Assembly (NCBI RefSeq): GCF_045037415.1 | Contig: NZ_CP173438.1 | Length of the DNA stretch: 64,000 nt | From: Escherichia coli | Lineage (GTDB): Bacteria; Pseudomonadota; Gammaproteobacteria; Enterobacterales; Enterobacteriaceae | Direction: 5' to 3' (one strand) | Shown here: positions 20,430 through 20,575 of the stretch, in pieces | Position numbering within the stretch: the stretch's first letter is position 1 | How the letters are laid out: every line of letters begins with the position of its first letter | The notes under the pieces: generated by a model | The model's input: only the letters and a program-made list of their open reading frames with translations | Told to the model about the DNA's origin: nothing | Databases searched by the model: none | Made by a program: the position numbers and the translations under genes

Positions 20430-20575
20430 AATTCTCTCGTTCTGATGACAGGTCAGATCCGCTTCACCTGATGAAGCGGTCAGGGGAGTGCCCCCACTTT
20501 AAGGGCGGGCATTGTAGCGCTGTGGAGGTAACTGGTAAAGCGCCGGACGCCAACAACCTACGCCCGGCATCGTAA

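Follow-up and report, generated by a model that had tools for sequence, protein, structure and literature searches.

A conserved three-hairpin leader of trhP in the Enterobacterales with a candidate translational operator beside the Shine-Dalgarno sequence

The stretch of Escherichia coli DNA considered here (64,000 nucleotides of contig NZ_CP173438.1, referred to as the window) carries on its minus strand the genes baeS (21807-23210), baeR (21088-21810), yegP (20576-20908, encoding a DUF1508 protein), yegQ (19068-20429) and the small RNA (sRNA) gene cyaR (18900-18985; Rfam match of 101.8 bits), in that order, with a 146-bp spacer between yegP and yegQ (20430-20575). RefSeq now names yegQ trhP, for prephenate-dependent tRNA uridine-34 hydroxylase. 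The product of TrhP, 5-hydroxyuridine at position 34 (ho5U34), is the first intermediate of the 5-carboxymethoxyuridine (cmo5U) wobble modification, which broadens decoding in six tRNAs. The spacer is very probably a junction made up of a terminator, a promoter and a leader, and not a spacer internal to an operon. The 74-nt trhP leader consists of three consecutive simple hairpins, P1, P2 and P3, the last of which adjoins the Shine-Dalgarno (SD) sequence and may serve as a translational operator. The identity of trhP is taken from the open reading frame list, the RefSeq annotation and Sakai et al. (2019, PMC6599085).

A sequence-only reading of the window had described the spacer as 146 bp between two minus-strand genes, containing an 8-bp hairpin (ccgcttca-cctga-tgaagcgg on the plus strand, 20459-20479) and further GC-rich palindromes. 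The coordinates agree, the hairpin is exactly as claimed, and the other palindromes are present as hairpin H1 (20568-20542) and a G/C hairpin at 20495-20483. The same reading proposed that the named hairpin may be an attenuator or processing site; what stands of this is that the spacer is structured and that a transcript ends within it, that end being at H1 and not at the named hairpin. Folded as a whole, the spacer is no more structured than shuffled sequence (z = -0.54). An Rfam 15 search of the spacer at E <= 10 returns only a chance match to CRISPR-DR33 (12 bits), and a search of a 176-nt stretch alone against Rfam with lax filters returns no relevant family. The spacer aligns without gaps and with five mismatches to positions 2165522-2165667 of E. 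coli K-12 MG1655, so that published K-12 coordinates carry over directly.

The yegP 3' end and the trhP promoter

Transcripts of yegP end at H1, a GC-rich stem-loop of the form GCCGGGCG-(9 nt)-CGUCCGGC on the minus strand (20542-20568; -17 kcal/mol) which starts 7 nt past the yegP stop codon and so lies less than 50 nt from it. The sole 3' end within the spacer in the Term-seq data of Adams et al. (2021, PMC7815308) is at K-12 2165559(+) and is classed as 'primary' for yegP, a class defined as ends no more than 50 bp downstream of a gene. This end corresponds to window position 20538, the second U past the H1 stem. Mapping of 3' ends, the check that had been suggested for the attenuator proposal, gives one listed end in the spacer, at 20538, and none listed at the flagged hairpin. 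A hairpin of the type (G)CCGGG...CCCGG(C) with a variable interior is kept in every Enterobacteriaceae locus that has yegP upstream of trhP. The sequence 3' of H1 is GC-UUU-ACC, whose three U's are below the terminator-scan criterion of five U's in eight; in strains carrying a parDE cassette in the spacer the tail is UUUAUAU.

A consensus scan finds a sigma-70 promoter, TTTACC-17-TACAAT, with nine of 12 matches to the consensus. The -35 hexamer (20534-20539, minus strand) overlaps the short U-tract of H1, the -10 hexamer (20511-20516) is preceded by a conserved GCGC, and a GC-rich discriminator, GCCCGCC (20504-20510), lies between the -10 hexamer and the transcription start site (TSS). A scan of one genome per species yielded 80 trhP loci from the Enterobacteriaceae, of which 79 have a match to TA[CT]AAT. 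Of 79 species, 69 have TTTAC[C/T] as the -35 hexamer and 73 have a promoter spacer of 17 nt. Across 71 leaders aligned by anchoring on the TA[CT]AAT match, T1, A2, A4, A5 and T6 of the -10 hexamer never vary, and C3 is conserved in at least 90%. The sequence GCGCTACAAT is essentially invariant at the trhP loci of the family, and the discriminator is conserved throughout it. A GC-rich discriminator after the -10 hexamer is a trait of the stringently controlled promoters of rrn and tRNA genes, and the trhP promoter resembles such stable-RNA promoters in its near-consensus -10 hexamer, its GC-rich discriminator, its suboptimal -35 hexamer and in having a product that acts on tRNA. By analogy, a discriminator of the stringent type would tie the level of TrhP to growth rate.

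The trhP mRNA starts at 20503 from this conserved promoter, 8 nt past TACAAT. SMRT-Cappable-seq (Yan et al. 2018, PMC6131387) places the corresponding primary TSS at K-12 2165594(+) in both data sheets, with 112 and 81 reads starting there, of which 42 and 19, respectively, reach the cyaR terminator. The operon table of that study lists trhP-cyaR (b2081|b4438) from 2165594 and baeR-yegP (b2079|b2080) from 2164245, and includes no unit joining yegP and trhP. In the work of Sakai et al. (2019, PMC6599085), trhP together with 200 bp of its upstream DNA complemented a trhP deletion, as would be expected if the spacer holds a promoter. This corrects the operon picture, in that yegP and trhP are separate transcription units, and the end mapping that separates them is already public. 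Full-length trhP transcripts (18900-20503, minus strand) stop at the cyaR terminator, and CyaR therefore also lies within the 3' untranslated region (UTR) of trhP, besides having its own sRNA gene.

A three-hairpin leader in the Enterobacterales

About 110 nt preceding the trhP ATG are conserved in nearly all of the 80 Enterobacteriaceae loci, and yegP is directly upstream of trhP in only about 15 of these. A covariance model of P1, P2 and P3 has exactly one match per source (82/82), with scores of 53.7-106 bits and always adjoining trhP, and the 82 sources give 72 distinct sequences; the window likewise contains a single match. In the model alignment of the 72 distinct rows, 94.6% of the cells are paired compared with 86.3% for shuffles, none of the 500 attaining as much as the real alignment, and the covariation score is 0.244 compared with 0.098, values to be read with the caution that this alignment is biased to the structure of the model, the raw alignment giving the same picture. 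Matches to the model also occur directly 5' of trhP in Pantoea, Pectobacterium, Yersinia, Providencia, Limnobaculum, Morganella, Sodalis and Leminorella, eight genera outside the Enterobacteriaceae in which the synteny baeS-baeR-(yegP)-trhP-yegS is kept. One further locus, a Logan contig (L107, from SRR9087304), has an E. coli-type yegP-trhP region full of transition substitutions with a TrhP 71% identical, and probably stems from damaged or error-laden reads and not from a real lineage.

The flagged hairpin is P2, CCGCUUCA-UCAGG-UGAAGCGG on the minus strand (20459-20479), which occupies positions +25 to +45 of the trhP mRNA. Its folding energy of -12.1 kcal/mol compares with a shuffle mean of -2.7 (z = -5.5; none of 200 shuffles is as good), and the stem is 9 bp long when a U-G pair is counted. 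The folding energy of a single sequence proves little, and it is the comparative data which place P2 beyond chance. Among the 72 distinct leaders, compensatory double changes occur at all eight pairs and 94.3% of the cells are paired, a proportion that falls to 40-53% in controls with slid partners. Variant pairs of arms include CCGCUUCA/UGAAGCGG, UCGCCGCA/UGCGGCGA, CCGUCCCA/UGGGACGG and UCACCACA/UGUGGUGA, and G-U pairs occur in the sense strand. RNAalifold, applied to 71 distinct sequences that MAFFT had aligned without guidance, recovers P2 with double changes at all seven predicted pairs, and recovers P3 as well. Outside the Enterobacteriaceae the helix is kept with unrelated sequences, such as UUGCUG/CAGCAA in Pantoea, CUGCUCC/GGAGCAG in Pectobacterium and CACUCU/AGAGUG in Providencia, and this is the strongest sign that P2 is selected as an RNA helix.

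P2 is a leader helix that has been maintained in evolution, and it is not an intrinsic terminator or attenuator. Directly 3' of it is AUCUGACC, which has no U-tract, and the terminator scan is silent there. No 3' end at K-12 21656xx and no yegQ or trhP entry is listed in the four supplementary Term-seq files that accompany Adams et al. (2021, PMC7815308), and supplementary file 2 lists no Rho-dependent termination region at P2. P2 resembles the 5'-UTR intrinsic terminators and attenuators of that study in being a stable GC-rich hairpin downstream of a TSS, but it lacks both a U-tract and a mapped 3' end, and the sole end in the spacer, at H1, is upstream of the TSS. It is also retained in species whose trhP does not adjoin yegP (about 65 of 80). 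The proposal that this hairpin tunes the ratio of YegP to YegQ fails on the same observations, together with the absence of a joint unit from the operon table: P2 cannot set that ratio because it belongs to an mRNA with a start of its own and is still present where yegP is missing upstream.

P1, GGGGG-CAC-UCCCC (20483-20495, minus strand; +9 to +21), is the 5'-proximal hairpin and is the G/C hairpin mentioned above. It is present in both the minimum free energy and the centroid fold of the mapped transcript, and compensatory changes occur at two of the four modelled pairs (for example, GAGGA/UCCUC in Salmonella and GUGG/CCAC in Shimwellia), which is weaker support than that for P2. In Cedecea sulfonylureivorans an AT-rich terminator-like hairpin, AAAGAAGGAAAAA...UUUUUCCUUCUUU (L080:1434-1506), takes the place of the promoter and P1. 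P2 and P3 are retained in this species, which suggests that P2, P3 and the SD sequence form the functional core of the leader.

The leader does not have the build of a riboswitch: it has no multi-helix junction or pseudoknot, its linkers are variable, and its sole invariant block is P3 plus the SD sequence. Two further candidates were rejected. A conserved upstream open reading frame finds no backing in the 72 leaders, in which start, frame and length are unconserved (GUG-GGG-GCA-CUC-CCC-stop in E. coli, a 25-codon frame in Klebsiella). A kissing interaction between the P2 and P3 loops (CAGG:CCUG) could form in E. coli and Klebsiella and shows no covariation in Trabulsiella, Kosakonia, Citrobacter, Pectobacterium, Yersinia or Providencia. 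Taken singly, a terminator hairpin, a sigma-70 promoter and a structured 5' UTR are ordinary kinds of elements. We found no description in the literature or in Rfam of the order-wide three-hairpin trhP leader, of the covariation of P2 or of its invariant hairpin resembling an anticodon arm.

P3 as a candidate translational operator

P3, UCUGA-CCUGUCA-UCAGA (20441-20457, minus strand), has 5 bp and a 7-nt loop, a geometry like that of an anticodon arm, and is followed by the SD sequence GAGAG (20434-20438, minus strand) inside a conserved ACGAGA block. Six Enterobacterales families supplied 86 distinct sequences, and all of them (100%) have the stem CUGA/UCAG; for comparison, the majority base has a frequency of 0.78 at third-codon positions in the neighbouring coding sequence and of 0.64 in the P2 region. 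There is no indel in P3 in any of these sequences, the inner four pairs being invariant and the outer pair mostly kept. Numbered as in tRNA, the loop follows the pattern C-Y-U-G-N-N-M, with C32, Y33, U34 and G35 conserved and positions 36-38 free, and this one-sided conservation argues for recognition as RNA and against a symmetric DNA operator. The SD sequence begins 1-3 nt and the AUG 11-12 nt past the end of P3 in 83 of the 86 sequences, and ACGAGA is nearly invariant. P3 alone is marginally stable (-2.6 kcal/mol), and the 36-mer comprising P3 and the SD sequence is single copy in E. coli.

Variable P1 and P2 helices followed by a frozen, weak P3 that touches the SD sequence form a pattern typical of translational operators, and the leader may control the initiation of trhP translation. 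P3 is taken as the operator because it adjoins the SD sequence, is only marginally stable and is fixed in stem sequence and geometry. It would be the site recognized by a sequence-specific trans-acting factor, which on binding would compete with docking of the 30S subunit, and P1 and P2 would be rigid spacers that keep P3 and the SD sequence from mispairing with upstream RNA and shield the 5' end. That P3 is an operator for any trans-acting factor falls somewhat short of even odds. Our overall confidence in the best explanation, about 0.6, blends this estimate with the much higher one for the architecture of the spacer.

The leading candidate for the factor would be TrhP itself, to which P3 would look like the anticodon arm of its substrate; bound beside the SD sequence, the enzyme may repress translation of trhP at times when little unmodified tRNA is available. 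This proposal, which draws on sequence resemblance, is unlikely as it stands. P3 was compared with a K-12 panel of the six TrhP substrate tRNAs and 14 others, in which leuW is the UAG substrate tRNA and leuZ is UAA. The arm of thrU, tRNA-Thr(UGU), is ACUGA-CUUGUAA-UCAGU, and E. coli P3 is identical to it at 13 of 17 positions. U34 of tRNA-Thr(UGU) is a target of hydroxylation by TrhP. P3 of Pectobacterium and Limnobaculum, (C/U)CUGA-CUUGUGA-UCAGA, matches thrU at 14 of 17 positions, with position 37, purine for purine, as the sole difference in the inner 15 nt, and the Sodalis P3 also reaches 14 of 17. For all 11 variants of P3, thrU is the top match among the 20 tRNAs, the runner-up scoring no more than 11. 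Of the 1,185 other hairpins of P3 geometry in the window, one reaches 13 against any substrate arm, and for random Watson-Crick hairpins the probability of at least 13 is 0.24% and of at least 14 is 0.05%, frequencies that are not clean p-values given that the resemblance was noticed before the test. Across the order, positions 34-36 of P3 are UGU, UGA or UGC, each of which occurs as an anticodon among the cmo5U tRNAs.

The nearest known parallel is the thrS operator, a mimic of an anticodon arm that lies beside the SD sequence of thrS and is bound by threonyl-tRNA synthetase. This E. coli translational operator is reportedly the subject of work by Romby et al. (1996, EMBO J) and Jenner et al. 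(2005, Science) on autoregulation by anticodon-arm mimicry. PMC3858243 cites the thrS operator work of both groups, and eukaryotic synthetase mRNAs with anticodon mimics are autogenously regulated as well (PMC6542539, PMC9956033). Like the thrS operator, the trhP leader has a hairpin with the geometry and sequence of an anticodon arm directly upstream of the SD sequence of a gene for a tRNA-binding enzyme, with a second hairpin further upstream; the mimicked tRNA is tRNA-Thr in both, and competition between enzyme and 30S subunit would be common to the two. Binding and repression are proven for thrS and putative for trhP. The enzyme differs too, being a tRNA-modifying hydroxylase and not a synthetase. 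E. coli P3 has C33 in place of the universal U33, although U is found in Pectobacterium, Yersinia, Providencia and others, and position 36 of P3 varies (UGU, UGA, UGC), so that the mimicry would be of the UGN class and not of one tRNA. The leader also resembles those of ribosomal protein and synthetase genes, in that it is a structured 5' UTR restricted to one gene, with a single copy per genome and variable helices around one sequence-invariant recognition hairpin; unlike them it is short (74 nt), with three simple hairpins and no junction or pseudoknot.

Several points weigh against this interpretation, some of them touching the architecture and others the function of P3. The TSS comes from one study with two conditions. 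The three-U H1 fails the terminator scan and its Term-seq 3' end is present once across three growth conditions (PMC7815308), and the mapped end could be a trimmed one protected by the hairpin. As a whole, the leader folds with an unremarkable energy (z = -0.76). Two TrhP loci with 63-65% identity have no leader, which therefore appears to be confined to the Enterobacterales. P3 displays no covariation, and its pairing follows solely from complementarity and constant geometry. Erwinia phyllosphaerae (L095) has lost P3, with UGUCAGA left about 40 nt upstream of trhP, and has kept P2, which makes it a natural P3 knockout comparable with the P3-bearing Pantoea. As to mimicry, E. coli P3 has C at positions 33 and 37, the combination being U33 and G37 in Pectobacterium and Limnobaculum and U33 and A37 in Yersinia and Morganella. 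TrhP prefers tRNA-Leu3 and tRNA-Pro3 (Sakai et al. 2019, PMC6599085). Neither a P3-like hairpin nor a match to the model occurs upstream of trhO or cmoA in K-12, yet this is compatible with feedback specific to trhP.

Of the alternatives, the one that survives best is that the leader acts in cis only, P1, P2 and P3 stabilizing the mRNA and insulating the ribosome-binding site, with P3 also serving as a ribosome standby or spacing element. P1 and P2 do look like generic helices in which pairing is kept and sequence is free, the leader matches no Rfam family, and no leader-sRNA chimera is among the Hfq CLASH (cross-linking, ligation and sequencing of hybrids) chimeras listed. Hairpins at the 5' end are well-known mRNA stabilizers, as in the ompA 5' UTR, which also speaks for a role in cis. 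A purely structural P3, however, should covary as P2 does, whereas its two arms and positions 32, 34 and 35 of its loop have stayed fixed across an order in which the sequence of P2 has changed entirely, and at -2.6 kcal/mol it is too weak for a stabilizer. A role in cis alone is on the unlikely side.

Alternatively, P3 and its 5' flank could be the seed-match site of an sRNA that regulates trhP translation, the 3' arm being constant in order to keep the hairpin. This would account for the invariance of both arms and for a loop that is conserved on its 5' side alone, and a site adjoining the SD sequence is typical of sRNA targets. No candidate sRNA has been identified, however, and among the Hfq CLASH chimeras listed those involving either gene are only yegQ coding region-eptB (2 reads) and one CyaR-yegP read, with none from the leader. 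CyaR, which is on the same transcript, pairs with the leader no better (-28.3 kcal/mol) than do shuffles (-28.7) or random windows (-28.4). Regulation through an sRNA site at P3 is quite improbable.

The palindromes could also act as DNA, with TCTGA-N7-TCAGA, the P2 dyad or both forming operators of a dimeric transcription factor that acts as a roadblock. Both elements are inverted repeats, and the two half-sites of P3 are invariant, as for a dimer. P2, on the other hand, is wholly rewritten between species yet remains complementary, with sense-strand G-U pairs that are a signature of RNA; P3 is asymmetric about its dyad, C-Y-T-G on the left being conserved and the mirror positions on the right free; and a site that touches the SD sequence and lies 50-70 bp past the TSS suits control at the RNA level better. 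The spacing of the palindromes is, we presume, unlike that of LexA, CRP or FNR boxes. A DNA operator is very improbable.

The weakest explanation, barely tenable, is that yegP and yegQ are cotranscribed and that the hairpin at 20459-20479 sets the YegP:YegQ ratio as an attenuator or processing site: the hairpin is stable and lies between both genes, one 3' end does occur in the spacer, and H1 with only UUU is a weak terminator, so that some yegP read-through is likely, but that 3' end is 59 nt upstream of the named hairpin, P2 has neither a U-tract nor a listed 3' end or Rho-dependent region, the trhP TSS precedes P2 with no long-read unit across yegP-trhP, and P2 is conserved in neighbourhoods without yegP.

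Whichever factor is involved, an order-wide leader with covarying helices and an invariant hairpin adjoining the SD sequence is a testable handle on how the level of TrhP is set. If P3 is indeed a substrate mimic, autoregulation by tRNA mimicry would extend from aminoacyl-tRNA synthetases to tRNA-modification enzymes, and P3 would be a minimal RNA reporting what TrhP recognizes.

Variation upstream of the trhP promoter

In 1,846 of 5,426 complete E. coli genomes the yegP-trhP spacer carries a parD/parE type II toxin-antitoxin cassette of about 780 bp (L001:720-1495). At this site the cassette is always single copy and chromosomal, and it is inserted within 20521-20541 of the window, where it replaces the -35 hexamer and most of the promoter spacer of trhP. 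H1 and everything from GCGCTACAAT to the ATG are intact in these genomes, and parE is not separated from trhP by a terminator. Other split arrangements of the spacer occur in about 400 further E. coli genomes, and one locus (L007) has a 452-bp spacer with an apparent remnant of the 3' part of parE. In many loci without yegP (among L007-L086, in the upstream 1.5 kb), unrelated GC-rich hairpins, some of them resembling repetitive extragenic palindromic (REP) elements, adjoin the -35 hexamer. An 8.5-kb islet has been described at the 'yegQ locus' of S. Typhi (PMC7400221). It seems that the DNA immediately preceding the trhP promoter is a hotspot for insertions.

Further upstream, the interval between baeR and yegP contains a long hairpin, UGCCGGAUCUGGCC-UUCA-GACCAGAUCCGGCA (21037-21077, minus strand), with a weak match to the REP-like Rfam family naRNA4 (19.7 bits, E = 2.1). 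It is probably a REP or terminator element.

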